A DNA stretch of 64,000 nt. It comes from Alphaproteobacteria bacterium (GTDB taxonomy: Bacteria; Pseudomonadota; Alphaproteobacteria; UBA828). This document shows positions 2,308-56,076 of the stretch, piece after piece (position 1 is the stretch's first letter; every line of letters starts with the position of its first letter). A model generated the notes under the pieces. That model was not told the DNA's origin, ran no database searches, and saw only the letters and a list, made by a program, of their open reading frames with translations. The stretch covers positions 3,936,001 to 4,000,000 of the forward strand of contig OZ243972.1 in NCBI GenBank assembly GCA_965214705.1. Direction: 5' to 3'. The translations under genes were made by a program, and so were the position numbers.

Positions 2308-4248
2308 TTACTCCGCGAGGGCCCGCGACACCAGACCCGAAAGGCGCTTGGTGAAGGCCGAGGGGTCGGGCACCGGCTCGCCTTCGAGGATGAGCGCCTG
2401 ATCCATCAGCAGGTGCGCGGCGTCCTCGAGCGCCTCGCTTGCGCCTTTCTGGCCGACCATCCGCGCCAGTGCCCGGGTCAGATCGTGTGACGGGTTGATC
2501 TCCAGCACCCGCTTCTGCTCCGGCAGCTCGTGCTTGTGCTGGCGCAGCAGCCGTTCCAGGTGCATGTCGAGGTCACCCTCGTCGGCGACGAGGCAGACCG
2601 GGCTGTCAGTCAGGCGCTCAGAGGTGCGCACGTCCTTGACGGCATCCGCCAGCGTCAGCTTCACCAAGGCGATCAGCTTATCCATCTCGCCCGGCGGCGT
2701 GGCGTCGGTCTCATCCGGCTTGGCCTCCTCGCTCACCGCGAACTTGTCCAGGTCTGCCGCGCCCTGCGTGACCGAGCGGAACGGCTTCTCCTTGTAGGCG
2801 CCGATTACCGGAAGCCAGAACTGATCGACCGGGTCGACCATGAGCAGCACGTCGATGCCGCGGGCGCGAAAACCCTCGATCTGGGGACTGCGGCGCAGCG
2901 CGTCGGCATCCTCCCCGCTCATGTAGTAGATGGCTTCCTGCTGCTCAGGCATGGCGTCCACGTAGTCGTCGAGCGAGAGCCAGCGCTCACCGCCGCCCGT
3001 GGAGCGGAAGCGGACGAGGGGAAGCAGCCGGTCCTTCTGCTCTGCGTCTTCGTACAACCCCTCCTTCAGCACCGCGCCGAAGTTGTCCCAGAACGACGCG
3101 TATTCCTCCGGGGTCTTCTTGGCGCGCTTCTCCAGCTCGGAGAAGACGCGCTTGACCAGTCCGGTCCTGATCTTCGCCAGGATCGGATCGTTCTGGAGGG
3201 TCTCGCGGCTGACGTTGAGCGCGAGATCGGCGGAATCCACCACACCCCGCATGAAGCGGAGGTAGGGCGGGATCAGCCCCTCGCATTCGTCGGTGATGAA
3301 GACCCGCCTGACGTAGAGCCGCACCCGGTGCCGGCGGATCGGGTCGAACAGATCGAAGGGCGTGGTGTCCGGCACGAAGAGCAGCGCCGTGTACTCGATG
3401 CGCCCTTCGGCGTGGAGGTGGATGGTGTGCCAAGGGTCGCCCGGCATGTGGGCGATGTGGTGATAGAACTCGCGGTACTGATCCTCGTCGATGTCGCTCT
3501 TGGGCCGGCTCCAGAGCGCCGAGCCCTCGTTGACCATTTCCTTCTGGCCGCTCTCGTTCTCGAGCCAGATCGGCAGGCCGACGTGGTCGGAGTAGGCCTT
3601 GACGATGGTGCGGATGCGGAGCGGCTCCAGGAATTCCCGCGCGTCCTTGCGCAGGTGAAGCTCGATCCGGGTGCCGCGGGCGGCGTCGACCTCCGGCGCG
3701 ATGGAAAACGATCCGGTCCCGTCCGAGCGCCAGCGCCAGCCCTCGGCCTCGTCTGCCCTGCGGGTCACGACGTCGACGCGCTTCGCCACCATGAAGGACG
3801 AGTAGAAGCCGACGCCGAACTGGCCGATGAGCCCGGCTGCCAGGCCGTCTTGTTCCTCCTTCCCGCTTTGCTCGTCCTGTCCGTCCTTCCCGTCATCGTC
3901 CCGCGAGTCGGCCATCTGTTTGACGAAGGCCTCTGTGCCGGAGCGCGCAATGGTGCCGAGGTTGTCGATCAACTCCTGGCGATTCATGCCGATGCCGTTG
4001 TCGGTTACGACCAGCACGCTGCTCTTGCTGTCCGGCGTAATGGTCACCGCAAGCGCGGCGTCGTCGCCCAGCAGGTCGGGTTGTGTGATCGCGGCGTAGC
4101 GCAGCTTGTCGCAGGCGTCGGACGCGTTCGAGACCAACTCCCGCAGGAAGATTTCTTTGTCCCGATAGAGCGAGTTGGCCATGAGGCCAAGCAGCTTGCT
4201 GACCTCGGCCTGGAACGCGTGGCGTTCCCCGCTGGTGTTCGCCATCAT
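2308..4248 (-). CDS. htpG: Molecular chaperone HtpG (Hsp90)
   Basis: EIFLRELVSNASDA, NLGTIARSGT, IGQFGVGFYS, LNVSRE motifs. Confidence 0.97.
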   Translation of the reverse strand: MMANTSGERHAFQAEVSKLLGLMANSLYRDKEIFLRELVSNASDACDKLRYAAITQPDLLGDDAALAVTITPDSKSSVLVVTDNGIGMNRQELIDNLGTIARSGTEAFVKQMADSRDDDGKDGQDEQSGKEEQDGLAAGLIGQFGVGFYSSFMVAKRVDVVTRRADEAEGWRWRSDGTGSFSIAPEVDAARGTRIELHLRKDAREFLEPLRIRTIVKAYSDHVGLPIWLENESGQKEMVNEGSALWSRPKSDIDEDQYREFYHHIAHMPGDPWHTIHLHAEGRIEYTALLFVPDTTPFDLFDPIRRHRVRLYVRRVFITDECEGLIPPYLRFMRGVVDSADLALNVSRETLQNDPILAKIRTGLVKRVFSELEKRAKKTPEEYASFWDNFGAVLKEGLYEDAEQKDRLLPLVRFRSTGGGERWLSLDDYVDAMPEQQEAIYYMSGEDADALRRSPQIEGFRARGIDVLLMVDPVDQFWLPVIGAYKEKPFRSVTQGAADLDKFAVSEEAKPDETDATPPGEMDKLIALVKLTLADAVKDVRTSERLTDSPVCLVADEGDLDMHLERLLRQHKHELPEQKRVLEINPSHDLTRALARMVGQKGASEALEDAAHLLMDQALILEGEPVPDPSAFTKRLSGLVSRALAE

Positions 4249-4361
4249 CCCCTCCGATGCGCCCGTCCGCCGTCAATTCGGAGCGCTATATGTGACGAAC
4301 CTGCGGGTGGTTCAAGCCCGTGCTCGCTCATTCGAGCGACGAGGGCAGGCGCAGCGAAGGC

Positions 4362-4829
4362 CTATTCCAGCTCGTCGAGCTGTTCGCCTGCGAGAAATCG
4401 TTCCATGACGATGCCGTCGGACTGTTCATACCGGCCGTCACCTAGCGGCGTGACGTACTTGCAGAATTCCTTGGGGCCAAGCGGAATGCTTGGATAATTC
4501 GTGCAGAATTGGCCAACGTCATCGAAGAAATACGTTCCGTCATAGTTGAAAGTCCCGAATGGCGTCTTCGCCTTCAATTTCGCTGTTCCATCGGAAGCGA
4601 AATACTCCGCCGCGTCGATATTTCTTTTGGCTTCAACGCTGATGACGGTATTCCCTACGATAAGTTCCTGGATTTCGGCGACGGTCATCGTACCGGCCGG
4701 AGCGGCCGCATCTTGAACTGCAGCGTCTTGAGTCGTCGCAGCCATCTCATACGGTTGGCACGCTGCAACAGCGAGTCCAAGAGCCGCAACCGCCAAGCCA
4801 CCGGCTCCAATCTTCCAAAGACGAGTCAT
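4362..4829 (-). CDS. Hypothetical lipoprotein
   Basis: GGAGG RBS before ATG; hydrophobic leader ending in lipobox-like VAAC; lower GC than neighbours. Confidence 0.65.
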   Translation of the reverse strand: MTRLWKIGAGGLAVAALGLAVAACQPYEMAATTQDAAVQDAAAPAGTMTVAEIQELIVGNTVISVEAKRNIDAAEYFASDGTAKLKAKTPFGTFNYDGTYFFDDVGQFCTNYPSIPLGPKEFCKYVTPLGDGRYEQSDGIVMERFLAGEQLDELE

Positions 4830-4981
4830 TCGATAACCTCCCAATGAGCGAGACGTATTTTCCACGCACGATCATTCTAGCCATCTGTGGGACGTGGCAT
4901 ACCCGCGATTACGAAGTGAGGAACGCCATGGCGCCTGCTCATGGGGTTGCCAAATCGGGCTGGACCGCCAAACTTTCTGTC

Positions 4982-12891: not shown

Positions 12892-13857
12892 TCAGTTGAA
12901 CTCGCGCTCAAGGGCCTCGGCGAGTTCGAAGATGTCAACGCAGGCGCCGTGGTGGGCGACGTTGAAGATCGGCGCCTCCGGGTCGGTGTTGACCGCGATG
13001 ATGGTGTCCACGTGCTTCATGCCGGCCAGGTGCTGGACCGCGCCGGAGATACCCAAAGCCAGATAGAGTGAGCAGTTGCCCGCGATCGTGCCGGACTGGC
13101 CGACCTGGTGGGCCTTGGGCAGCCAGCCGGAATCGGCGACCGGGCGCGAGCAGCCGAGGGTGGCGCCGAGCCGTTCCGCAAGCGCCGCGAACTGAGGCAG
13201 GTTCGTGTCTTCGCCGAGGGCGCGGCCGACCGAGAGGATGAACTCCGCCTTGCCGATATCCACGTCGGCGGGTGGGGCCGGCAGATAATCGATGTGGTGG
13301 CCGGCGCCGGGCACGGCGTCGAGCTCGACCGTGACCGGCACGATACTCGCGTTGCCTGCCGCTTCGGGCGCCTGGAAGGTCGCGCCGCGCAGCGTCAGCA
13401 CGATCACGGGCTTCTCGGGGAAGGCCAAGTCCATCGAGACCTTGCCGCCGTAACCGCTGCGGGTCGCGATGGGCTCGCCGCCGTCGAGCGCGAGTCCGAA
13501 GACATCGGACGCGAAGCCCGAGCCGAGCCGCGCGGCGACCGCCGGCCCGAAAGCCATGCCGGCGGCGGTGTGGCCGATCAGGACGAGCCGGACCTGCCGC
13601 GCCTCGGCGACGGCGCAAACCGCTTCCTCATAGAGCGCGGGATCGAAATGCGCGTCCGCCTGCGCGACGGTGACGATCTCGTCGACTCCCTCCAGGTTGG
13701 CGGCGGCGGCGAGGCTGTCCGTGTCCTGACCGACGACGAGGACGGCGAGCGGGCCGCCGAGGCCGTCCTTGATCTCGGCGGCAGCGCCGATCATCTCCAG
13801 CGTGACGTCGCGCAGGAGACCGTCGAAGTGCTCAGCGACGACGAGGATCCCGGCCAT
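12892..13857 (-). CDS. etfA: Electron transfer flavoprotein alpha subunit
   Basis: [41 protein letters not shown]. Confidence 0.95.
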
Positions 13858-14051
13858 CACACCTCTCCTCGCTTGTCCCGAATGATGTCCGCGATGGCCT
13901 TGGCGACGGCGGCCGCGTCGATCATCTCCAGCGTGACGTCGCGCAGGAGACCGTCGAAGTGCTCGGCGACGACGAGGATCCCGGCCATCACACCTCTCCC
14001 CGCTTGTCTCGAATGATATCCGCGATGGTCTTGGCGACGGCCGCCGCATCG
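13788..14051. repeat. Diverged 131-bp tandem duplication of the etfB/etfA junction, creating a 43-aa chimeric ORF (13857..13988, -)
   Basis: Two adjacent copies starting 13789 and 13920 with 7 mismatches. Confidence 0.93.
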
Positions 14052-23265: not shown

Positions 23266-23511
23266 TCAGCGCCACACCGCGCGGACCACGCTCAAGTAGT
23301 TCTCGCCCAGGATACCCCGCACCTCCCGTTCGGCGTATCCGCGCTCCAGCAGGCCTTCGGTCACCTCGGGCAGTTGTTCGGGCTGGAAGAACGCGGTCAG
23401 CGGCTTCTCATAGTCTGCCCAGTATTTTTCCTTGTTTGCCTCGAAGACGCGGGTGAAGCCTTCGACGTCGTAGACGAGGTCAATCCCGAGCCCGACATGC
23501 TCGGGACCCAT
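23266..23511 (-). pseudogene. C-terminal remnant of membrane dipeptidase (M19)
   Basis: GPEHVGLGID...RGY...ILGENYL; N-terminus missing next to IS630. Confidence 0.75.
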
Positions 23512-24099
23512 CCAGTGGGCGGCGTCCGAGGGCGAGAGCGATACGGGTGTTGCTCGCTAGAGCATTTTTCGATCTTAGAGAATCTTTAGAATTTTCAATC
23601 GCTTGGAAATGTGATTCAAGACGCGGGCTGGTGAAGGAGGCCAGCCTGCATGACACGACCTCTTTCGAATGATCTGCGCCGCCGGGTGGTGACGGCGGTG
23701 GTCGATGGCGGCATGTCCCGCCGGGGCGCGGCGAGACGCTTCGGCATCGCGCCGTCGACGGCGATCAAGTGGGTCGATGCCTGGCGCCGCACGGGCAGCT
23801 ATCGGCCGAGGGCGCAGGGCGGCGACAGGCGCTCGCAGCGGATCGAGGCGCGGGCCGAGGTGGTCCTCGCACTGGTGGAAGAGACCCCGGACATGACGCT
23901 GGCGGAGATCACCACCCATCTGGAGGACGAGCACGGGCTGCGGGTCTCCCAGAGCACCGTATGGCGCTTCTTCCACCGCCGGGGCATCACCTTCAAAAAC
24001 AGACATGGCCGGCGTGTAGCGATCCACCCCGGATGATGAAAGTCCGGTGCCTCGGTCGAGGGAATGAACGCTGCCCCTGCGTGGCATAGCGGCATTAGA

Positions 24100-24290
24100 G
24101 TCACGGTCGGTGGAGGCGGCACAATGGCCGTCGTTTTAGTGGTGAGCACTGCTTCCCGATCAAAAACTGGCCCCGGCCGGTCGGCTCCGAGCCCCGGATT
24201 GTTCCCGGCCGCCGAGCCGTGGACGCGCGGCAAACCGCACCGCACCCGAGGCGGGTGTGTGTTCAGTCCGACCGGCCCGTCCGCCTCCGC
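24100..24290 (+). ncRNA. Putative bridge/seek RNA of IS110 (limits approximate)
   Basis: Structured non-coding left end with target-like ATCAAAAA and donor-like CGGCAAA/TGTT segments. Confidence 0.55.
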
Positions 24291-24314
24291 CTTCCCCAAG
24301 CGAGAGGTGAGATC

Positions 24315-25577
24315 ATGAGAACCGACACACTGCACGTCGTCCATGCTCGTGCCGCCGGCATTGACGTGCACAAGATGCAGATCACCACATCGATCCGCAT
24401 CTGTGCACCCGGCGGCGGCGAGCCGCAGATCGCGACGCGGACCTTCGAGGCTCTGCCCAGCGGCATCGACGAGATGGTGGCATGGATGCTCGCGCGCAAA
24501 GTCGATGCCGCAGTGATGGAGGGCACCGGCATCTACTGGGTGGCACCGTTCGAAGCGCTGGAGGCGGCCGGCATCTCCGTGGTGCTGGTCAACGCCCGGC
24601 AGGTCAAGCAGCTGAAGGGCCGCAAGACCGATGTGGCGGACAGCGTCTGGCTGGCGCGGGTCTGTCAGTTCGGTCTGGCAAGCCCCAGCCACGTGCCGCC
24701 CAAGGCGTTCCGGGAGATGCGCGCACTTACCCGCTACCGGCGCGCCCTCGTCGGTCAGCGCAGCCGGGTGCGCAATCGGGTGCAGAAGGTCCTGGACCGC
24801 AGCGGCGTGCGCGTCGGCGGTGTCCTCTCCGACGTCTTCGGCACGAACGGGAGACGGGTTCTCGACGGCTTGGCTGAGGGGCTCGGACCGGACGCCATCC
24901 TGGCCTCGCTCAGCCACCATGTGGCGCACAAGGTCGAGCGGCTCGGCGACGCCCTCAGCCTCTCCCTCAGCGCTGCGGACCGCCTGATCCTGTGCGATCT
25001 GCTTCGCGAGCACGATGCGCTGGAGGAGCGCATCCAGGGGTTCGACCGGGCCATCGACGATGGCTTCGTGCCCTGGGAGGACCGCATCCTGCTTCTCCAG
25101 ACCATCCCCGGGATCGACCGGGCCTCGGCCTGCGCCATCCTCGCCGAGATCGGCCCCGACCTCGACGCCTTCGGCTCCACTGATCGGCTTGCCGCATGGG
25201 CCGGTCTCTGTCCCGGCAACAGCCAAAGCGCCGGAAAGCGCCGTGCCGCCCGCACACGCATGGGCAGCAAGACCCTGCGCGCCGTGCTCGTCGAATGCGC
25301 TCATGGCGCGGCGCGAACCCATGGCTGCCAGTTCCGCGGCTACCACAAGGCTCTCATGATCCGACGCGGTTACAAGCGGGCCATCGTCGCCACCGCGCAC
25401 AAGATGCTGCGGGTCCTCTACGTCGTGTTGCGCGACGCCAAGCCTTACTACGATCCGGAAGCCGACTACGAAGCCCTCATGGTCAGGCGAAATGCCCCGC
25501 GCTGGATCCGCATGCTCCGCCGGCACGGCTTGCTCGAGCCCGGTCGTATCCCAACTGCCATGGCCGCGACCGCCTGA
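24315..25577 (+). CDS. IS110 DEDD recombinase
   Basis: GIDVHK, MEGTGIYW, KTDVADS, TIPGI, GLCP..SQSAGK; GAGGTG RBS. Confidence 0.95.
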   Translation: MRTDTLHVVHARAAGIDVHKMQITTSIRICAPGGGEPQIATRTFEALPSGIDEMVAWMLARKVDAAVMEGTGIYWVAPFEALEAAGISVVLVNARQVKQLKGRKTDVADSVWLARVCQFGLASPSHVPPKAFREMRALTRYRRALVGQRSRVRNRVQKVLDRSGVRVGGVLSDVFGTNGRRVLDGLAEGLGPDAILASLSHHVAHKVERLGDALSLSLSAADRLILCDLLREHDALEERIQGFDRAIDDGFVPWEDRILLLQTIPGIDRASACAILAEIGPDLDAFGSTDRLAAWAGLCPGNSQSAGKRRAARTRMGSKTLRAVLVECAHGAARTHGCQFRGYHKALMIRRGYKRAIVATAHKMLRVLYVVLRDAKPYYDPEADYEALMVRRNAPRWIRMLRRHGLLEPGRIPTAMAATA

Positions 25578-26352
25578 AGCATTACCTGGTCGGAGCACGG
25601 TCGGCACCGGGCCACAATCCAGGGCAGCCCGAAGTCCGACCGCGTCTCCAAGCACCGCGAGCGCGGCCTCACGCCGACAACGCGACGCCTCGTCGTAATT
25701 CCCCTACTCGTGCCCGTCCCGAAGAAACTTTCACGGCAAAACGGCGCACGCCAGCGAGCAGCAACGCGCTGACGTGCTCAGGCGCAGGCGCGCCTGGGTC
25801 GAAGCCCAGCCCGGGCTCGACCCTGAGAAGCTGGTCTTCGTGGATGAGACCGGTGCTTCCACCAAAATGGCGCGGCGCTCAGGCCGAGCTTTGCGCGGAC
25901 ACCGCTGCCGCGCTCCGGTGCCTCATGGCCATTGGAAGACCACGACCTTCGTCGGCGCGCTGAGGCTGAGCGGAATGACCGCGCCCATGGTGCTCGACGG
26001 CGCCATGCACGGCGTCGCCTTCCTCGCCTACGTAGACAAGGTGCTGGTGCCGACACTTAAACCCGGCGATATCGTGGTGATGGACAACCTTGCCTGCCAC
26101 CGCAGTGCCGCCGCCCGCGAGGCTATCCAAAGGGCCGGGGCCGAGCTCCGCTTCCTGCCGCCCTACAGCCCCGACTTCAACCCGATCGAGATGGCCTTCT
26201 CCAAGCTCAAGGCCTCCCTCAAGCGCCGCGCAGCCCGCACCCTTCCAGAACTCTGGGACGCCATCGGCGAAGCCACAGACAACTTCACACCCGCCGAGTG
26301 CCAAAACTACTTCGCTGCTGCAGGATATGACCACGTATGATCGGATAGTGCT

Positions 26353-27432
26353 CTAGTTGTGGTTGGCGTGAGCACCATTGTTGGGGGCGGGGGCAGGGGC
26401 CTCCGCGCTGGGAGGCCATGTGTCGCTGAGTCTATAGCCCTCCGGCCATGGATCGCGCGGGTCGAGGTGGAGTTAGGTCGTACCGGTCAGCCAGGCACGA
26501 CCCGAGATCGACGGCAGGATCGCCGGGCGTCCGTCCAAGGTGGTTTCCCCCTCGATGCGGCAGTCGAAGACGGAATCGATGATCGACACTCCGCGGAAGC
26601 GGTCGCCGAGCCCGAGTTCGCCCCGCGCGTGCAGCACCGCCATGCGTGCCGAGCAGCCGGTACCGGTCGGACTGCGGTCGATCTTGCCCGGCCGGATTAC
26701 CACCGCGTTGCGGCCCGTCGGAACGCCGTCGATGCTCTGAAGCGGCGCCGCGATCTGGCAGAACGAGATATGCCGCCAATCGGGGTTTTCGGGATGGACG
26801 AAGCCCAACTGCTCGTTGGCGGCACGGGTGATCCGAATCCCCGTCTCGACGATGTCCCGCGCTTCGTCAGGGCTGAGTGCGAAGCCGAGCGCCTCCGAAT
26901 CCACCAGCACGAAGCTGTCGCCGCCATAAGCGGTGTCCACAGTGAGCGTTCCGAGCCCTTCCACCTCGAGCGCGGCCCCAAGCCGCGCCGCGAAGGAAGC
27001 CACGTTGTGCACGCGGACGGAGTCGACCCGCCCCTCGTTGCAGGCGGCATGCACCCGGATGAGGCCGCCAGGTGCTTCCAGAGTCATCACCGTCTCGGGT
27101 TCGGTCATCGGCAAGATGCCTGTTTCCAGTAACACCGTGGCGACGCAGAGGCTATTCGATCCCGACATCGGCGGCGTGTCCTCGGGCTCCATGATGATGA
27201 AGCCCATGTCGGCGCGAGGATCCTTCGGCGGCACCAGCAGGTTGACATGTCGGAACACGCCGCCGCGTGGCTCGTTCAACACGAAGCGGCGGAGCGACTG
27301 GTCGCGGGCGATGAAGCGTGACTGCTCCCAGAGCGTGTCACCTGGCGGCGGGGCGACGCCGCCGATGATGACATCGCCCACCTCGCCTTCCGCATGGCAG
27401 CCGACGATTTGCACGAGGCGTTGCGATCGCAT
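26353..27432 (-). pseudogene. Proline racemase family protein with premature TAA near the C-terminus
   Basis: [24 protein letters not shown]; family-like tail [20 protein letters not shown] continues in frame after TAA at 26473-26475. Confidence 0.85.
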
Positions 27433-45794: not shown

Positions 45795-46780
45795 GGCGGT
45801 CCGCCGGGTGCCAGTGAGTCCGCTGTGCAGAGCGCGGCGATGCGGCGGCGTTCGGCTTGCGCTTCGGCAACCGAGACCTGGCGGAAGCGGTAGGTCTCGT
45901 TGGGGCGCGATTGGCCGAGCTTCCACCAGGCGCAGGTGGGCACCGTGTAGGGGTTGATGAAGCCGCCCAGCGTCAGCGTGTCCACCATCAGGATGATGGG
46001 CGTCTGGCCGCAGAGGTTGATGGCGCCGATGGGGTAGCCGTGGTCGATCACGTTGGAGGGATGCTCGCCGTTCTCCGGCGCCTTGTTGGTCGCCTTCTCG
46101 GTGAAGGTCCACTCCGGCCCTTCGAGCCGGAAGCCGACGCGGTTGCTCTTGGGCGAGAGCCTCCAGTCGCTCTCAAGGAAGCGCCGCTTGCCGGCTTCGT
46201 CGATCCAGTCGTCGTTGGGGCCGGCCACCACCTCGATCTCCCAGGCGCCGCCGGCGGGGGCAGGGGGGCGCGTGCCCTCCTTCAGCCTGCGGCCGGGCGC
46301 GGCGTTGTCAGGTGACCCGAGCGGGATGCTCTGCCCTTCCTTCAGAGCGGCTCCCTCGAGGCCGCCGCAGGCGCCGATGACGAAGGTCGCACGGGAGTCG
46401 AGGAAGAGAGGCACGTCGATGCCGCCAGTGAAGGCGATGTAGGTGCGGGCGCCGGTGACGGCGGATGCCAACGCGAGCGTCTGGCCGGCGCGCACGCCGA
46501 TGCTCTGCCAGAGCGGCACGGGCTCTCCGTCCAGGGTCGCCTTCATGTCGGCGCCGGTGAGCGCGATCACGGCGTCGCGCTCGAAACGGAGCGTCGGGCC
46601 GATGAAGGCGCATTCCAGCGCCGCCGCGCCCGGCGCGTTGCCGACCAGGACGTTGGCGAGGCGGAAGGACCAGTGGTCGATGGGGCCCGAGGGCGGAAAG
46701 CCCATGCCGAAGGCGCCCTTGCGGCCTGGATAGTCCTGCACCGTGGTCTCGAGCCCGCCCTTGATAACCGTGACCGCCAT
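45791..46780 (-). CDS. PxpC/urea-carboxylase carboxyltransferase A/B-domain protein (copy 2)
   Basis: TTVQDYPGR, PSGP.D, LANVLVGN, SNRVGFRL. Confidence 0.9.
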   Translation of the reverse strand: MAVTVIKGGLETTVQDYPGRKGAFGMGFPPSGPIDHWSFRLANVLVGNAPGAAALECAFIGPTLRFERDAVIALTGADMKATLDGEPVPLWQSIGVRAGQTLALASAVTGARTYIAFTGGIDVPLFLDSRATFVIGACGGLEGAALKEGQSIPLGSPDNAAPGRRLKEGTRPPAPAGGAWEIEVVAGPNDDWIDEAGKRRFLESDWRLSPKSNRVGFRLEGPEWTFTEKATNKAPENGEHPSNVIDHGYPIGAINLCGQTPIILMVDTLTLGGFINPYTVPTCAWWKLGQSRPNETYRFRQVSVAEAQAERRRIAALCTADSLAPGGPP

Positions 46781-46811: not shown

Positions 46812-47681
46812 TCAGAACCGCTCGCTCGGGTCGAGGGAGGTGACCCAATCTTTGTAGGCCCGGACCGAGAAGCGCTGGTAGCCGGTGACGTTGAAGGCGT
46901 AGGTGCCCTCTGCCACGCGGCGCTCGATGTACTCGAACTCCTCCAGCTCGACGGGCACGAACTTCACCCGGTCGGCGGCGTCGAGCAGCACCACGCGGTC
47001 GCGGTAGGCGGGAAGACTGGCCTGCGTGTCCCAGAGCGGGACCGGGGTGCGGCCGATCAGGTTGTAGCCGCCGGGCCCCGGCGTCGTGTAGATCGAGGTG
47101 GAGAGGCCGCCGACGCCGATGGCGCCCAAGGTGGTCCAGGTGCGGGGCGGGTTGTACTTGGGCGAGGTGATGGCGCAGCGCGGGTCGAGCGCCACCATCA
47201 ACGGCAGGCCCGGCGTCGAGCAGACGGCGACCACCCAGTGCTCGGTGCCGGAATGGACGCGGGCAAGCTGCGCCGCATCCTCCAGCCCGTTGATGCGGGC
47301 CACGAACTCCGGGTCGCCGTCGCGGGGCGCGATGCGCTGGGCGTAGTCCTCGACGCAGGCCTTGGTCCAGGGGTCGCGGTACATCACCGGCAGGTAGGCG
47401 AGGCGGCTCTCAAGCTCCAGGTCTTCGACCGAGCCGAGGCCCTCGATCAGGCGGCGAAGCTCATGCGCGAGGTCGTCCGCGCCGATCAGGTCGGGGTCGT
47501 ACTCCACCACCACGGAGTTGTAGGAGGGGTTGGTGTCGATGACGCCCTTGGTGCGGTCCTCGCGCAACGCGGCGGTGAGGCCGAGGGCCATGAAGTTGAG
47601 GTCGATGCGCGCGTCGTCGCCGAACTGCACCAGCACGAAGGTATCGCCGCCGGGCAGGAAGCGCGGCTCGTCGTAGATCAC
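46812..47681 (-). CDS. PxpB/carboxyltransferase C/D-domain protein (copy 2)
   Basis: GGD, KYNPPRTWT, PGGYNLIGRTP. Confidence 0.88.
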   Translation of the reverse strand: MIYDEPRFLPGGDTFVLVQFGDDARIDLNFMALGLTAALREDRTKGVIDTNPSYNSVVVEYDPDLIGADDLAHELRRLIEGLGSVEDLELESRLAYLPVMYRDPWTKACVEDYAQRIAPRDGDPEFVARINGLEDAAQLARVHSGTEHWVVAVCSTPGLPLMVALDPRCAITSPKYNPPRTWTTLGAIGVGGLSTSIYTTPGPGGYNLIGRTPVPLWDTQASLPAYRDRVVLLDAADRVKFVPVELEEFEYIERRVAEGTYAFNVTGYQRFSVRAYKDWVTSLDPSERF

Positions 47682-48661
47682 CCGGCGTTCTCCAGGCTCG
47701 ACTCGGTGCAGAGCGCGTCGATGGCGCGGCGTGCGGCCTGCGCCTCGGTCACCGAGACGAGGTGGAAGCGATAGGTGTCGTTGGGCTTCGACTGGGCCAG
47801 CTTCCAGAACGCCGCCGACGGCACCGTGTAGGGGTTGATGAAGCCTCCGGCGGACGGACCGTCGTTCACCAGGATAATCGGTGTCTGGCCGCAGAGGTTC
47901 ACCGCGCCCACGGGATAGCCGTGGTCGAGGATGTTGGAAGGATGCTCGCCGTGCTCCGGTCCCTTATCGGTGGCGCGGGCGGCGAAGGTCCATTCCGGGC
48001 CGGAGAGGCGATAGCCGGTGCGGTTGCTGCGGGCCTGGAGGGTCCAGTCGCTCTCCAGGAACATGCGCTGGCCTGCTTCGTCGATCCAGTCGTCGTTGGG
48101 GCCGGCGACGACCTCGATCTGCCAGCTGTTCTCCTCCGGGATGGGCGGGCGGCAATCGTCCTTCACGTGCCGGCCGGAATGGCCGTTGTCGCCGCCTGCG
48201 CCGAGAGGCAAGTGCTGGCCGTCCTCGATGGCGTGACCCTCCATCCCGCCGACGCCGGCCATGTGAAAGGTGGAGCGCGAGCCCAGCACCGGCGCCGTCT
48301 CGATGCCGCCGGCGACAGCGAGGTAGGCGCGGGCGCCGATGCGCGCGAAGCCGGTCTCCAGCACCCCACCGGCGGGGACGGCGACGCTCTCCCACTGGGG
48401 TATCGGCGCGCCGTCGAGTTTGGGCGCCATGGTGGCGCCGGTGAGGGCGATCACGGTGTCGCTCGCGAAGCGGAGCGTCGGGCCGAGGAACTGGATCTCC
48501 AGCCCCGCCACGTCCGGCGCATTGCCGACCAGCAGGTTGGCGAGGCGGAAGGACCACATGTCGAAGGGGCCTGAGGGCGGGAAGCCCTGCTCCCAGAAGC
48601 CGTAGCGGCCGGGAAAGTCCTGCACGCTGGTCTCCAACCCGGCCTTGACCACCTCGATCAT
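47678..48661 (-). CDS. PxpC-like protein (copy 1)
   Basis: TSVQDFPGR, LANLLVGN, SNRTGYRL, DGPSAGGF. Confidence 0.9.
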   Translation of the reverse strand: MIEVVKAGLETSVQDFPGRYGFWEQGFPPSGPFDMWSFRLANLLVGNAPDVAGLEIQFLGPTLRFASDTVIALTGATMAPKLDGAPIPQWESVAVPAGGVLETGFARIGARAYLAVAGGIETAPVLGSRSTFHMAGVGGMEGHAIEDGQHLPLGAGGDNGHSGRHVKDDCRPPIPEENSWQIEVVAGPNDDWIDEAGQRMFLESDWTLQARSNRTGYRLSGPEWTFAARATDKGPEHGEHPSNILDHGYPVGAVNLCGQTPIILVNDGPSAGGFINPYTVPSAAFWKLAQSKPNDTYRFHLVSVTEAQAARRAIDALCTESSLENAG

Positions 48662-48881: not shown

Positions 48882-49751
48882 TCAAAACCGCACGCTCATG
48901 TCGAGGGTTGCGAGCCAGGCGTGATAGGCCCGGATCGAGAACTTGGCGTAGGCCGCAACCTGGTGCTCGTACTCGCCGCTCTTCACCTGGGCCTCGACAT
49001 GGTCGTATTCCTCCCGGCCCACGGGCACGAAGCGCACCCGGTCGCCGGGCTTGAGCAGGGCGAGGCGGTCGCGGAAGGCGCGGAGCCGCTGCTCCAGGTC
49101 GACCACCGGCACCGGCGAGTGGCCGATGATCTGGTAGCCGCCCGGCGTGCGGGCCGGATAGAGGCAGGTGACCGAGCCGCCGTAGCCGAGCGTGCCTTTC
49201 GGAGTCCAGGTGCGTGGCGGGTTGTACTTCGGTGCCGTGAGGCGGCAGCGCGGGTCCAGCGCGATGAGCGAGGCGAGGCCCGGATAGAAGCCCAATGCCG
49301 CCACCCAATACTCGGTGCCCGAATGGATGCGGGCGAGCTGCGCGCGGCTCTCCAGCTTGTTGAGCCGCACCATGAGGTCGGGGTCGTACTCCTTCTCGAC
49401 GATGCGGGCGCAGTAGTCCTCCCAACAGGCGCGGGTGACGTGATCGAAGTAGAGCACGGGGAAGGTGTAGAGCGGGCTCGGCAACTCCACGTCCTCCAGC
49501 GAGCCGAGAGAGGCGAAGATACCGCCGATTTCGCGCACAACGTCGTCATAGCCGATCCGGTCCGGATCGTAGCTGATGACGATGGAGGCCATGTTGGGCA
49601 GCAGCTCGATGATGCCGTCGAAGTCGGCCTCGCGGACTCGCGCGGTCAGCGCGTGGACCAGGAAGTTGAGGTCGAAATTGAGTTCGTCCCCCAACTCCAT
49701 CTCGATGAAGCGGTCGCCGCCCGGCGTGAATCGCGGCTCGTCGTAGATCAT
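48882..49751 (-). CDS. PxpB-like protein (copy 1)
   Basis: GGDR, LGFYPG, KYNPPRTWTP, TPGGYQIIG. Confidence 0.88.
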   Translation of the reverse strand: MIYDEPRFTPGGDRFIEMELGDELNFDLNFLVHALTARVREADFDGIIELLPNMASIVISYDPDRIGYDDVVREIGGIFASLGSLEDVELPSPLYTFPVLYFDHVTRACWEDYCARIVEKEYDPDLMVRLNKLESRAQLARIHSGTEYWVAALGFYPGLASLIALDPRCRLTAPKYNPPRTWTPKGTLGYGGSVTCLYPARTPGGYQIIGHSPVPVVDLEQRLRAFRDRLALLKPGDRVRFVPVGREEYDHVEAQVKSGEYEHQVAAYAKFSIRAYHAWLATLDMSVRF

Positions 49752-49913
49752 CGTGCGCGCCGGCCTCCGCCGCGTGTTCCACCCGGCAGACGCGCCGGTG
49801 CGTTGGGTTCTAGCGCGATCGGCGGGGCGGAGCCAAGCGCGGCGCCTCTCCCGCCCGGATCGCCGGCTCTGCTATAACGGGCCTGGCACGCCGGAGCGGG
49901 CAGGGGGGACGCC

Positions 49914-52143: not shown

Positions 52144-53501
52144 CACATTCGCTAACTTGTTTGCGGTTCTTCGATGAAGCGTTCCGCGATTTGGGTCAGG
52201 CGCCGCCGGGACGGTTCGGAGAGGGATTTGGAGATCTGGTTCCATTGGTCGATCACCTCGGCGAGGGACAAATGGGGTTCGATGGCTCGCACGCCCTGGT
52301 TGAGCATGAACCCGAAGTCACGCCAGGCGCTGTGCGGCCGGCAGCGCCTCCAGGCTGTATCCCCAGGGGGAAACCGTGCTGGCATGACGGATCAGCTTTT
52401 CCACCAGCAGCGCCACCAGGAGTTTGCCGTAGAGCCACGCCTTGGCGCTCTCGTCGTCGTATTTGGGCAGATGCCCCAACTGCGCCAGAGACTTGAAGCG
52501 CTTGAAGACCAGTTCGACCTGCCAGCGGGTGCGATCCCACTCCAGGACCTGCGCCGCGCTGAAGGCCGCTTCGGGAAAGGTCGTGAACACGATGACGTAG
52601 CGCGCGAACTCCAGGGTTCGCGGCCGAACCTGCTTGCCCTTGCGCCCGGCCTCCTTGCGCAGCTTGCGCTGCGCCAGCCTGATGGCTTCCTGCGTCTTTC
52701 TGATCGCGCACACGCGCCCCGGCACCGCGATGCCGTCGCCGACCGCCAGCACGGGCCAGGATCGCACGCTGCCGACCCGCTTCAGCGTCGTGACGTGTGC
52801 AAGCAGGTCGAACGGCGCGCCGTCGCGCGTTCGAAGCGACAGCGCCCCGGTGTTCACGCGCACGGTGACATGACCCCCCGCAGACACCACGTGGTGGAGG
52901 CCCGCAGCAGTCGAGTACGCCCGGTCGGCGAGCACAAAGTCGCCCTCGCCGACCGGGAACTGCGAGAACGCCTCGCCCGTGCCCCGTCCCTCGCTCGCCG
53001 TGAGCTTGAAGAAGTCGCACGCCAGCGACGGAAGGCGCACGCTGTAGTGCAGGCGCCACAGCGCCCCGGTCCGGCCCGGCTCCTTCACCGTCGTCGCGTC
53101 GAAGGCCCTGACCTGGAACCCGCCAGCGGCCGACATCGCCATCCCCTGTTCGCGAAACAGCGCGACGCACAACGCGTGAAGCCAATCCCCCGACTTCCTC
53201 AGCCGCTTCAACAAGGCCACGTCGGACAGATCGGCCAGGTTCGCCTTCCTCGCACGCACCACGGTCTCGCGCAGCGAGTGTCCGCAGGCCAGATGCAGCA
53301 ACAGCGTGCGCAGCAGGGCATCGACCGACTTGTCCTTGCGCAGACCCTTCAAGGCCCCGGTCTCCCGTGCCAACTCCCGCCAGCCCTCGGGCAGAAACAA
53401 CGACACCACTTCCCACTCCTCGTCCATCCGCCAAGCCTCCCCGCAGCGCGCACCAACCCACAATACGGAGTGCCGACATGACAAACAAGTTAGCGCTTAT
53501 G
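52144..53501 (-). mobile_element. IS4 family element (no target duplication seen)
   Basis: IR core CGCTAACTTGTTTG at 52150 and inverted at 53482-53495. Confidence 0.85.
52318..53427 (-). CDS. IS4 transposase
   Basis: FDATT, LADRAY, RWQVELVFKRFKS (expected Y of the YREK motif reads D). Confidence 0.88.
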   Translation of the reverse strand: MDEEWEVVSLFLPEGWRELARETGALKGLRKDKSVDALLRTLLLHLACGHSLRETVVRARKANLADLSDVALLKRLRKSGDWLHALCVALFREQGMAMSAAGGFQVRAFDATTVKEPGRTGALWRLHYSVRLPSLACDFFKLTASEGRGTGEAFSQFPVGEGDFVLADRAYSTAAGLHHVVSAGGHVTVRVNTGALSLRTRDGAPFDLLAHVTTLKRVGSVRSWPVLAVGDGIAVPGRVCAIRKTQEAIRLAQRKLRKEAGRKGKQVRPRTLEFARYVIVFTTFPEAAFSAAQVLEWDRTRWQVELVFKRFKSLAQLGHLPKYDDESAKAWLYGKLLVALLVEKLIRHASTVSPWGYSLEALPAAQRLA

Positions 53502-53689
53502 GCGCAAGGCGGCGACCGGCGCTCGCAGCGGATCGAGGCGTGGGCCGAGGTGGTCCTCGCACTGGTGGACGAGACCCCGGACATGACGCTTTCGGAGATT
53601 GCCACCCATCTGGAGGACGAGCACGGGCTGCGGGTCTCCCAGAGCACCGTATGGCGCTTCTTCCACCGCCGGGGCATCACCATCAAAAA

Positions 53690-55428
53690 CAGACATGGCC
53701 GGCGTGTAGCGATCCACCCCGGATGATGAAAGTCCGGTGCCTCGGTCGAGGGAATGAACGCTGCCCCTGCGTGGCATAGCGGCATTAGAGTCACGGTCGG
53801 TGGAGGCGGCACAATGGCCGTCGTTTTAGTGGTGAGCACTGCTTCCCGATCAAAAACTGGCCCCGGCCGGTCGGCTCCGAGCCCCGGATTGTTCCCGGCC
53901 GCCGAGCCGTGGACGCGCGGCAAACCGCACCGCACCCGAGGCGGGTGTGTGTTCAGTCCGACCGGCCCGTCCGCCTCCGCCTTCCCCAAGCGAGAGGTGA
54001 GATCATGAGAACCGACACACTGCACGTCGTCCATGCTCGTGCCGCCGGCATTGACGTGCACAAGATGCAGATCACCACATCGATCCGCATCTGTGCACCC
54101 GGCGGCGGCGAGCCGCAGATCGCGACGCGGACCTTCGAGGCTCTGCCCAGCGGCATCGACGAGATGGTGGCATGGATGCTCGCGCGCAAAGTCGATGCCG
54201 CAGTGATGGAGGGCACCGGCATCTACTGGGTGGCACCGTTCGAAGCGCTGGAGGCGGCCGGCATCTCCGTGGTGCTGGTCAACGCCCGGCAGGTCAAGCA
54301 GCTGAAGGGCCGCAAGACCGATGTGGCGGACAGCGTCTGGCTGGCGCGGGTCTGTCAGTTCGGTCTGGCAAGCCCCAGCCACGTGCCGCCCAAGGCGTTC
54401 CGGGAGATGCGCGCACTTACCCGCTACCGGCGCGCCCTCGTCGGTCAGCGCAGCCGGGTGCGCAATCGGGTGCAGAAGGTCCTGGACCGCAGCGGCGTGC
54501 GCGTCGGCGGTGTCCTCTCCGACGTCTTCGGCACGAACGGGAGACGGGTTCTCGACGGCTTGGCTGAGGGGCTCGGACCGGACGCCATCCTGGCCTCGCT
54601 CAGCCACCATGTGGCGCACAAGGTCGAGCGGCTCGGCGACGCCCTCAGCCTCTCCCTCAGCGCTGCGGACCGCCTGATCCTGTGCGATCTGCTTCGCGAG
54701 CACGATGCGCTGGAGGAGCGCATCCAGGGGTTCGACCGGGCCATCGACGATGGCTTCGTGCCCTGGGAGGACCGCATCCTGCTTCTCCAGACCATCCCCG
54801 GGATCGACCGGGCCTCGGCCTGCGCCATCCTCGCCGAGATCGGCCCCGACCTCGACGCCTTCGGCTCCACTGATCGGCTTGCCGCATGGGCCGGTCTCTG
54901 TCCCGGCAACAGCCAAAGCGCCGGAAAGCGCCGTGCCGCCCGCACACGCATGGGCAGCAAGACCCTGCGCGCCGTGCTCGTCGAATGCGCTCATGGCGCG
55001 GCGCGAACCCATGGCTGCCAGTTCCGCGGCTACCACAAGGCTCTCATGATCCGACGCGGTTACAAGCGGGCCATCGTCGCCACCGCGCACAAGATGCTGC
55101 GGGTCCTCTACGTCGTGTTGCGCGACGCCAAGCCTTACTACGATCCGGAAGCCGACTACGAAGCCCTCATGGTCAGGCGAAATGCCCCGCGCTGGATCCG
55201 CATGCTCCGCCGGCACGGCTTGCTCGAGCCCGGTCGTATCCCAACTGCCATGGCCGCGACCGCCTGAAGCATTACCTGGTCGGAGCACGGTCGGCACCGG
55301 GCCACAATCCAGGGCAGCCCGAAGTCCGACCGCGTCTCCAAGCACCGCGAGCGCGGCCTCACGCCGACAACGCGACGCCTCGTCGTAATTCCCCTACTCG
55401 TGCCCGTCCCGAAGAAACTTTCACGGCA
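53690..55428 (+). mobile_element. IS110 element, second copy
   Basis: Apparently identical to 24000-25738 (offset 29690), same junctions. Confidence 0.92.
54005..55267 (+). CDS. IS110 DEDD recombinase (copy 2)
   Basis: Translation identical to copy 1. Confidence 0.95.
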   Translation: MRTDTLHVVHARAAGIDVHKMQITTSIRICAPGGGEPQIATRTFEALPSGIDEMVAWMLARKVDAAVMEGTGIYWVAPFEALEAAGISVVLVNARQVKQLKGRKTDVADSVWLARVCQFGLASPSHVPPKAFREMRALTRYRRALVGQRSRVRNRVQKVLDRSGVRVGGVLSDVFGTNGRRVLDGLAEGLGPDAILASLSHHVAHKVERLGDALSLSLSAADRLILCDLLREHDALEERIQGFDRAIDDGFVPWEDRILLLQTIPGIDRASACAILAEIGPDLDAFGSTDRLAAWAGLCPGNSQSAGKRRAARTRMGSKTLRAVLVECAHGAARTHGCQFRGYHKALMIRRGYKRAIVATAHKMLRVLYVVLRDAKPYYDPEADYEALMVRRNAPRWIRMLRRHGLLEPGRIPTAMAATA

Positions 55429-56076
55429 AAACGGCGCACGCCAGCGAGCAGCAACGCGCTGACGTGCTCAGGCGCAGGCGCGCCTGGGTCGAAGCCCAGC
55501 CCGGGCTCGACCCTGAGAAGCTGGTCTTCGTGGATGAGACCGGTGCTTCCACCAAAATGGCGCGGCGCTCAGGCCGAGCTTTGCGCGGACACCGCTGCCG
55601 CGCTCCGGTGCCTCATGGCCATTGGAAGACCACGACCTTCGTCGGCGCGCTGAGGCTGAGCGGAATGACCGCGCCCATGGTGCTCGACGGCGCCATGCAC
55701 GGCGCCGCCTTCCTCGCCTACGTAGACAAGGTGCTGGTGCCCATCCTCAAACCCGGCGACATCGTGGTGATGGACAACCTTCCCGCCCACCGAAGTGCCG
55801 CCGCCCGAGAGGCTATCCAAAGGGCCGGGGCCGAGCTCCGCTTCCTGCCGCCCTACAGCCCTGACTTCAACCCGATCGAGATGGCATTCTCCAAGCTCAA
55901 GGCCTACCTCAAGCGACGCGCCGCCCGCACCGTCCCGGAACTCTGGGACGCCATCGGCCAAGCCACAGACACCTTCACACCCGCCGAGTGCCAAAACTAC
56001 TTCGCTGCTACAGGATATGACCACGTATGATCGGATAGTGCTCTAAAAGGTGAGATATGCGCGTCGCTTAGCGCGC

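Follow-up and report, generated by a model that had tools for sequence, protein, structure and literature searches.

Known bridge RNA systems and the present locus

RNA-guided recombination by IS110 elements and the homing of IS110-family insertion sequences (ISs) to mobile DNA are both established, and the principle behind the locus described here is therefore not new. In IS621, the 5′ strand of each bridge RNA loop base-pairs to the DNA's bottom strand (left half-site) and the 3′ one to the top strand (PMC11208160, PMC11208158). The IS1111-type seekRNAs of ISEc11, ISPa11 and ISKpn4 place the complement of the top strand first, the order being the opposite in the IS110-type ISEc21 (PMC11187229), and for many IS1111 members the donor-binding bases lie in a multiloop (PMC11208160). 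Recombinases of 395–455 amino acids (aa) are assigned to the IS110 subgroup (PMC11187229). Homing to other mobile or repeated DNA is described for IS4321/IS5075 in the terminal repeats of the Tn21 family, for IS1111-attC and for the REP-targeting ISPpu9/ISPpu10 (PMC11208160). A collection of 86 covariance models covers diverse bridge RNAs, many of which depart from IS621 (10.64898/2026.10.21.760802). As for the IS630 family, frameshifting is on record, as is transcriptional realignment in a Roseiflexus IS630 (PMC5009743). The subject of the present analysis is an IS110-family element that lies within an IS630-family element in a 64,000-nucleotide stretch of DNA from an alphaproteobacterium of the UBA828 lineage (positions 3,936,001 to 4,000,000 of the forward strand of contig OZ243972.1, assembly GCA_965214705.1); this whole stretch is called the window.

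We consider it highly probable that this element is an intact IS110-family IS whose predicted left-end bridge RNA reads the A-tract of IS630 by means of two guides, and its own right end by means of a third. The system itself is known; what the window element adds is a variant RNA architecture, and this architecture may already be among the 86 models just mentioned. No paper on an IS110 inside an IS630 was found in the literature, which was covered without most subscription journals and without ISfinder.

An IS110 element in the A-tract of an IS630 transposase gene

The IS110 element occupies positions 24000..25739 of the window on the + strand and measures ~1740 bp with one AA core; its limits were taken from an alignment of 13 left and 14 right ends and are ambiguous by 1 nt within the flanking A-runs. 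On the left, a run of five A's (23995..23999, + strand) holds the left copy of the core, C24000 being the first non-A (junction TTCAAAAA|CAGAC). The right junction reads CACGGC-AAAA-CGGCG, with the right copy of the core in the run of four A's at 25738-25741. The element consists of a non-coding left end of 315 nt (24000..24314, + strand; from the open reading frame (ORF) list and the left-end alignment), the gene of a 420-aa IS110-family DEDD recombinase (24315..25577, + strand) and a non-coding right end which, together with the right A-run, spans 25578..25741 (+ strand). The longer non-coding region is thus the one upstream of the recombinase gene (315 nt versus ~160 nt downstream). The recombinase matches PF01548 DEDD_Tnp_IS110 (86.8 bits, residues 14-162), PF02371 Transposase_20 (70.9 bits, residues 260-344) and the NCBIfam model NF033542 ‘IS110 family RNA-guided transposase’ (268 bits, cut-off 140). 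Judged by these full-length domain matches the element is an intact IS110-family insertion sequence, and with its 420 aa the recombinase falls in the long, IS110-proper size class. An identical protein is present in the public collection on two contigs, in a 90% cluster of three members. No terminal inverted repeat was seen among the longest 25 of 184 inverted pairs. AA is found at both junctions in the window element and in 11 relatives having both ends. The left end begins with a conserved AA(A)C-NN-YCATG; at the right end the conserved letters are ..TTACACAGC-AA (ACAGC-AA), which in the window element read ..TTTCACGGC-AA (..CACGGC-AA).

The host, hereafter copy 1, is an IS630-family element (23560..26353, + strand; ~1054 bp without the insert) with the features of that family: a transposase with helix-turn-helix (HTH) and DDE_3 domains, terminal inverted repeats (CTAGAGCA.. 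/ ..TGCTCTAG) and TA on both sides (23558-59 and 26354-55). Its orfA, which encodes the HTH part, runs from 23650 up to the A-run at 23999 (+ strand; ORF list and domain search), and the reading frame now continues into the IS110 as far as 24036, giving 128 aa. Its orfB, the DDE_3 part (25738..26340, + strand), starts with K-TAHASEQ... at the A-run. In the Pfam search the IS630-type HTH lies left of the IS110 and DDE_3 right of it, and the full-length IS630 homologue P0129 (316 aa; NCBIfam NF033545, 235.6 bits) maps in two pieces, residues 1-117 to 23650-24000 and residues 117-316 to 25738-26337. The insertion is orientation-specific and co-directional with the IS630 gene, which it splits. A preliminary description of this locus, made by a model from the sequence alone, had placed the IS110 in the A-run joining orfA and orfB and had the host transposase disabled. 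All of its coordinates and both of its junctions were correct on re-reading the window; the placement agrees with the junctions, with the Pfam and NCBIfam matches and with a second copy at +29690 (see below), and the loss of the transposase with the parting of HTH from DDE and the divided mapping of P0129.

Guide segments covary with their DNA partners

Three segments of the left end, all on the + strand, are candidate guides. The left-target guide, AUCAAAAA(C) (24159..24167), equals the top-strand left flank plus the core; its DNA letters at 24159-24166, ATCAAAAA, match 7 nt at copy 1 and 8 nt at the second IS630 copy of the window (copy 2), ATCAAAAA being present at the left flank of the second IS110 copy. 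The right-target guide, CGUCGUUUU (24129..24137; DNA letters CGTCGTTTT), is, but for one G-U, the complement of AAAACGGCG on the top strand (25738-25746). The left-donor guide, CGGCAAA (24228..24234), equals the element's own right end, CACGGCAA(A). To estimate how often such matches come about by chance, the 315-nt left end was shuffled 2000 times with its dinucleotide composition preserved. In 5 shuffles the sense match up to the left-flank A-run reached 8 nt or more, in 9 the antisense match from the right A-run onward reached 9 nt or more with G-U included, and in none did both occur (0/2000).

Relatives for comparison were obtained by scanning species-representative genomes with the recombinase. 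This procedure led to 18 loci (designated L001-L018) with 49–82% identity over the best matched segment, all from metagenome-assembled genomes of several phyla; none had the window element's own sequence, and those that entered the comparison have 56–80% aa identity. The left end is complete in 11 loci (L001, L002, L004, L005, L006 and L009-L014), which together with the window element make up the covariation set. L007 and L008 are further copies of the L006 element and L014 is a frameshifted copy; L003 and L015-L018, without a complete left end, and L001, without a right end, were omitted from counts requiring those parts. Plasmids were searched as well. A tblastn search with the recombinase gave 93 records, all below 40% identity, mostly from Streptomyces and Rhodococcus and useless for flanks, and a megablast search with the whole composite gave 43 records that matched only the IS630 DDE part (72–93% identity), none of them with an IS110 and none an empty site close enough for an A count.

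Covariation was assessed by permutation: the flank or end of each element was reassigned among the elements in 20 000 trials, and the trials reaching the observed total were counted. There were none for the left-target guides against their own left flanks (0/20 000; 12 elements), 10 for the right-target guides against their own right flanks (11 elements) and 21 for the left-donor guides against their own right ends. In this alignment, then, the three putative guide segments covary with the flanks or the right end of the element to which they belong. The left-target guide and its own left junction show right-anchored identity of 7–9 nt in 12 of 15 site rows; 180 of the 200 non-cognate pairs match over 4–5 nt only, namely the constant AAAC. 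In every element the homologue of AUCAAAAAC has AAAC at its end, while its upstream part copies the left flank of each element (CCCUAAAC in L002, UGUGAAAC in L004, CCUAAAAC in L005, UCCAAAC in L009, CACAAAC in L010 and CAGAAAC in L011), and the left-target guide (U)CUCAAAC shared by L006-L008 matches 8, 7 and 5 nt at the three sites. The right-target segment, homologous to CGUCGUUUU, is U-rich and complementary to AA plus the element's own right flank, the partners being AACACG in L004, AAAGCG in L011, AATAAAC in L012, AAAAG in L010, AAAGG in L002 and AAATAA in L007. Single cases can be clear: L004 has UGUGAAAC and ACGUGUU against GTGTGAAA|CACGC, L012 has GUUUAUU against AATAAAC and L011 has CGCUUU against AAAGCG. 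Right-flank matches are weak in L013 and L014 (3 nt each), and that of L005 was poor until the true junction was located behind a tandem duplication, where it is still only 4 nt. The left-donor segment likewise follows the right ends (ACAGCAA; ACAACAA in L011; AUGGCAA in L013).

The recombinase protein might itself read the A-tract, or the tract might be no more than an AT-rich hot spot in GC-rich DNA, the RNA-like matches being incidental in either case. An AA(A) core region is common to all relatives, so its constant part could indeed be read by protein. The variable bases on either side of the core, however, track the variable guide bases (0 and 10 of the 20 000 permutations), the guide segments occupy the two strands of a conserved internal loop (see below), and the two guide matches never occurred together in the shuffles; we regard this alternative as very improbable. 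RNA guidance, with an AA core and guides set against the IS630 A-tract, had been proposed in the preliminary description, which named guide/target covariation as a check. The covariation is present for the left-target, right-target and left-donor guides alike, and together with the recurrence of the insertion at other IS630 copies (see below) it speaks for that proposal.

Predicted structure of the left-end RNA

Applied to the 12 elements, RNAalifold predicts a bridge RNA core of ~180 nt (24110..24290, + strand) with an outer stem (24110-24119 / 24281-24290) in which 10 of 10 pairs are kept and 4 of 10 have changed on both sides. The frequent G-U pairs of this model fit transcription of the + strand. 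Domain 1, the putative target-binding loop (24126..24172, + strand), has the closing stem GGCCG (24126-30) / UGGCC (24168-72) and an internal loop around a hairpin at 24140-24158; the 5′ strand of the internal loop is the right-target guide and its 3′ strand the left-target guide. In the closing stem, 10 elements have GGAC/GUCC, whereas the window element and L001 have GGCC/GGCC, a compensatory change (A-U to C-G). Over the domain, 118 of 120 cells are paired and 2 of 10 pairs show compensatory changes.

Domain 2, the putative donor-binding multiloop (24175..24277, + strand), is closed by the helix GGCCGGUCGG (24175-84) / CCGACCGGCC (24268-77), whose sequence changes among the elements while complementarity is kept (for example, GGCCAACGG / CCGUUGGCC in L002 and GAGCAACGG / CCGUUGCUC in L012). 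Within it are an invariant hairpin, UGUUCCCGG (24200-08) / CCGUGGACG (24217-25), which carries an extra apical-loop insert in L002, and a second hairpin, CGCACCCG (24241-48) / CGGGTGTG (24252-59), with many compensatory changes; the left-donor guide is predicted to sit in the three-way junction. In this domain 307 of 324 cells are paired, with compensatory changes in 10 of 27 pairs (12 of 37 for domains 1 and 2 together). The donor module of the preliminary description was a different one. TGTT (24260-24263), taken there as the right-donor guide, has GUC or GCC in its place in 11 of the 12 elements and shows no dependence on the left-end sequence, and the proposed closure of the donor loop by GGAC (24221-24) and GTCC (24266-69) is fully complementary in 5 of 12 elements only, GGAC remaining static when its partner changes. 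More probably, GUGGACG pairs with UGUUCCCGG as a hairpin and the donor domain is closed by the other, covarying helix.

Folded as a single sequence, the whole left end does no better than its shuffles (z = −1.2; 13 of 100 shuffles fold equally well). Such a fold is uninformative, and the structure described above is that of the comparative alignment only. Handshake bases were not recognisable in the predicted RNA. The only Rfam match at E ≤ 1, to ctRNA_pGA1 on the minus strand over the right junction (25733-25805), had 20.8 bits against a gathering score of 45 (E = 0.53) and is probably due to chance. From anatomy, covariation and structure the left end is predicted to encode a bridge (seek) RNA, and we infer that this RNA is made.

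Comparison with described elements

With the IS621/IS110 group the window element has in common a recombinase with DEDD and Tnp domains and, upstream of its gene, a long non-coding left end with an RNA of ~180 nt, predicted in the present case (PMC11208160, PMC11208158). Separate target- and donor-reading modules are likewise shared with IS621, as is a left-donor guide on the 5′ side beside a hairpin, so that the donor guide keeps its IS621 position. There are, however, several differences from IS621 as it is described in the accessible text. The core is AA instead of CT. The target loop is reversed, with the top-strand-pairing guide on the 5′ side (24129-37) and the bottom-strand-pairing guide on the 3′ side (24159-66), and this holds for 12 of the 12 aligned elements. 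The donor guide is placed in a three-way junction, whereas that of IS621 is in a simple internal loop, and neither a right-donor guide nor handshake bases were recognised. Finally, the recombinase has 420 aa compared with 315–330 aa for the IS621/Piv branch (PMC11187229). The reversed loop could be viewed as the IS621 target loop circularly permuted, its open and closed stems having changed places: the helix by the core end of the left guide would be an open connecting stem here, where IS621 has a closed hairpin.

The guide order, with the top-strand complement 5′ of the bottom-strand match in the target loop, is that of the IS1111 seekRNAs (PMC11187229), and the multiloop donor module is a likeness to many IS1111 members (PMC11208160). 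Unlike in IS1111, where it is downstream (PMC11187229), the non-coding region is upstream; subterminal inverted repeats of 7–17 bp, a feature of IS1111 (PMC11187229), were not seen here among the longest 25 of 184 inverted pairs; and IS1111 transposases have 330–350 aa (PMC11187229), compared with 420 aa. As to target choice, the element resembles the homing elements listed at the outset in being a sequence-specific IS with a multicopy element as its landing pad. It differs from them, as far as the accessible descriptions go, in that the landing pad is inside the transposase coding sequence of another IS, at a recoding tract, so that the host is inactivated.

The IS630 A-tract and the length of the target

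The cognate target is predicted to be (A/T)TC-A6or7-CGGCG, that is, the homopolymer between the HTH- and DDE-coding parts of the IS630 transposase gene. The length of this homopolymer was inferred from the residues following ..ITF in 135 close OrfA homologues (P0001-P0120 and P0124-P0138). Forty-eight were of class A8 (FKK-NG/NR), 11 of class A7 in frame (including the 316-aa P0129), 2 of A9, 2 of A6 and 1 of A10; 24 others were variants and 47 were outside the pattern, many of the 47 having KKN.. tails on inspection. The length therefore differs between IS630 copies, from A6 to about A11, and the A7 copies are in frame. Relatives on Mesorhizobium and Sphingomonas plasmids have TTC/CGC-A7-G with orfB in the −1 frame, and one plasmid relative is annotated as a coding sequence of 944 nt, which is not divisible by three. 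The tract, at the HTH/DDE border, is thus a homopolymer of variable length, and recoding is usually needed there. Like the recoding tracts described for IS630 (PMC5009743), it lies where the DNA-binding part gives way to the catalytic part; its variable length between copies, with A8 the commonest, sets it apart from them. When the preliminary description spoke of a slippery site it was thus right as to kind, IS630 relatives needing recoding there; as to length the term is too narrow, since this varies and there are A7 alleles that encode a 316-aa transposase in frame.

The two junctions also bear on the allele that was hit. The left run of 5 and the right run of 4 add up to 9, which must equal the A's of the target plus those of the donor. 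The hit allele would therefore have been A7 if the circle junction was ..GGC-AA-CAGAC, or A6 if it was ..GGC-AAA-CAGAC, and in neither case A8. Full pairing of both guides favours A7 (5 + 4 − 2): the five A's of the left guide and the four of the right guide, overlapping on the 2-nt core, specify exactly seven. L012, which has AAG where the others have AAA at the first left-end position, favours A6 (donor AAA). A more specific reading, which is offered tentatively, is that the element is a tract-length-specific hyperparasite of IS630 with a hybrid RNA architecture (permuted target loop with its guides ordered as in IS1111, donor module of the multiloop type, recombinase of IS110 proper) that would prefer in-frame A7, spare the commoner A8 and use the IS630 promoter for its RNA and recombinase. 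If this were true, the A7 alleles hit would be those that encode the full-length transposase without recoding.

Recurrence of the insertion and history of the two window copies

Among the 135 OrfA homologues, 4 pass from ..IT(F/S)K straight into NR(H/L/I)GRR..: the window's own protein (P0124) and P0024, P0076 and P0094, which are encoded on other contigs (of 104810, 28688 and 33397 nt, respectively) and have an OrfA part 78–88% identical to that of the window. The FK-NR tails of these three imply five A's followed by CAGA. The tail of P0076, NRLGRRVAIHPG, is identical to the translation of the window's left end in 11 of 12 residues, and those of P0024 and P0094 diverge after GRR, as expected for diverged left ends. 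The protein tails support the view that the IS110 left end follows the same junction in three further IS630 OrfA copies. Copies in unrelated targets had been named in the preliminary description as the finding that would tell against it; the three outside proteins read into the same junction, which counts in its favour.

A search of the window with P0129 detected two IS630 copies only, and both are occupied by the IS110 at the identical site and in the identical orientation. The second composite is at 53501..56043 (+ strand; IS110 at 53690-55429), offset by exactly +29690 from the first. Its IS630 part is cut on the 5′ side at 53501 by another insertion sequence, so that the left IS630 end is gone. 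Aligned with each other, the copies agree at every position of 23993-26014, a block that takes in the entire IS110 and, on its right, 273 bp of IS630. Outside this block the IS630 parts differ, with 9 mismatches in 23811-23992 (182 nt) and 22 in 26015-26355 (341 nt). Because the two IS110 copies are 100% identical and the distal IS630 sequences are ~5–6% different, the IS110 must be younger than the split of the two IS630 copies, and the composite as a whole cannot have been duplicated recently. The IS110 element has probably been active recently. The same figures bear on the notion that the composite is a single mobile unit moved by its IS630 ends, with the IS110 as a passenger no longer capable of moving itself. 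Copy 1 does keep both terminal repeats and the TA flanks, and mobilisation in trans is possible in principle, but from a recently copied composite one would expect the reverse of identical IS110 copies within diverged IS630 parts, copy 2 is without its left IS630 end, and the recombinase gene of the IS110 is intact, its product matching the domains over their full length; a passenger role therefore seems to us most unlikely.

Several observations weigh against the reading that the IS110 is guided to the IS630 tract by its own RNA. The right-target guide contains a G-U, and its first 2 nt overlap the closing stem. The eighth base of the left-target guide (A) fits copy 2 (ATC) and not copy 1; Phe is found at this codon in 19 of 19 OrfA homologues fetched (proteins only), so that the consensus codon is probably TTC. 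No right-donor guide was detected when the 3′ strand of domain 2, the conserved UUGUUCC and the whole RNA (G-U allowed) were searched, and no RNA position tracks the first left-end bases across the aligned elements. No bridge RNA family of Rfam 15 was matched in 23500-26400 (E ≤ 1). The commonest tract class is A8 (48/135) and not A6 or A7, so that many IS630 copies may be inexact targets. The evidence for the three outside chimeras is protein sequence, without DNA or right junctions. Lastly, the 273-bp right flank (25742-26014 versus 55432-55704) has no mismatch where ~15 would be expected; gene conversion has thus taken place between the composites, its tract having one end at 26014/26015, and the two window copies are not clean independent insertions. 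The window on its own does not prove two independent insertions.

It is accordingly conceivable, though in our view doubtful, that homologous recombination or gene conversion, and not another RNA-guided insertion, brought the IS110 into the second IS630, in which case the recurrence within the window would be uninformative on targeting. An uninterrupted identity that includes 273 bp of IS630, between outer flanks ~5–6% different, is what this history would leave. On the other hand, identity ends 7 nt left of the junction (mismatch at 23992), and a conversion tract comprising the whole element would need an endpoint within those 7 nt; a tract starting inside the identical IS110 and ending at 26014 fits equally well after two insertions. 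Moreover, targeting has support that is independent of the second copy, namely the guide matches, the covariation in the family and the three chimeric OrfA proteins on other contigs.

Proposed course of insertion

Under RNA-guided insertion, and by analogy with IS621, the element would excise as a circle with the joint CACGGC-AA(A)-CAGAC, and the left-end RNA would bind the recombinase. Domain 2 would hold the circle junction via CGGCAAA and domain 1 the IS630 tract via the two guides overlapping on AA, and strand exchange at AA would yield both junctions observed. As the guides fix the orientation, the IS110 would always be co-directional with IS630, and read-through from the IS630 promoter could then feed both the RNA and the recombinase. 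What would remain of the IS630 is an HTH protein of 128 aa, together with a DDE part lacking a promoter.

Additional features of the window and of the relatives

A gene for a 388-aa DDE_Tnp_1 (IS4/IS5-like) transposase is present at 52318-53484 on the minus strand (PF01609, 45.5 bits). It adjoins the breakpoint at ~53500, where IS630 copy 2 loses the first ~160 nt of orfA; a third insertion sequence appears to have truncated this copy, which would make the region a nest of three IS types. Elsewhere in the window, a 131-nt unit forms two tandem copies with 92% identity (13767-14028), and diverged direct repeats with 68–76% identity and a spacing of ~1.9–2.1 kb are found at 45825-46616, 47536-48500 and 49606-49757; the latter suggest tandem paralogous genes.

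Some of the relatives are rearranged. L003 is the same element as L004, with its left end replaced (~2900-2960) upstream of GCGCAGCAAAACGC, which is the left-donor-guide DNA; two GCAACATA repeats directly precede the breakpoint, and the ORF ending before the replaced left end may encode a tyrosine recombinase. The closest relative, L001 (80% identity), loses homology beyond residue 352 (~4057-4400) and its right end was not found in the locus; the ORF that follows may encode an IS66-type accessory protein. At the left junction of L012 (locus ~100-120) there is a similarity between the left flank, ..TACAGCAA, and the right end of the element itself, ..CACAGCAA, and the core is followed by G instead of the A of the other elements; L012 may adjoin a remnant of another copy. 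In L005 a perfect tandem duplication of 525 bp (3903-4952; GGGCAA|CAAC) extends from inside the recombinase gene to the right end. It begins at a sequence resembling a donor half-site (..AGCAA) and fits the donor half-match events reported in two preprints (10.64898/2026.08.31.748434 and 10.64898/2026.08.14.744561).

Implications

The targeting of a bridge RNA can, on this evidence, be read from genome sequence alone, as three predicted guides track their DNA partners across a clade of 56–80% identity. A target loop of reversed order in an RNA encoded upstream of the recombinase gene informs the relation between the IS110 and IS1111 designs and alternative scaffolds for engineering. Homing of one IS into the coding sequence of another could limit the activity of IS630 and, the IS630 copies being plausibly many safe targets as the preliminary description had it, could provide the IS110 with many neutral sites.

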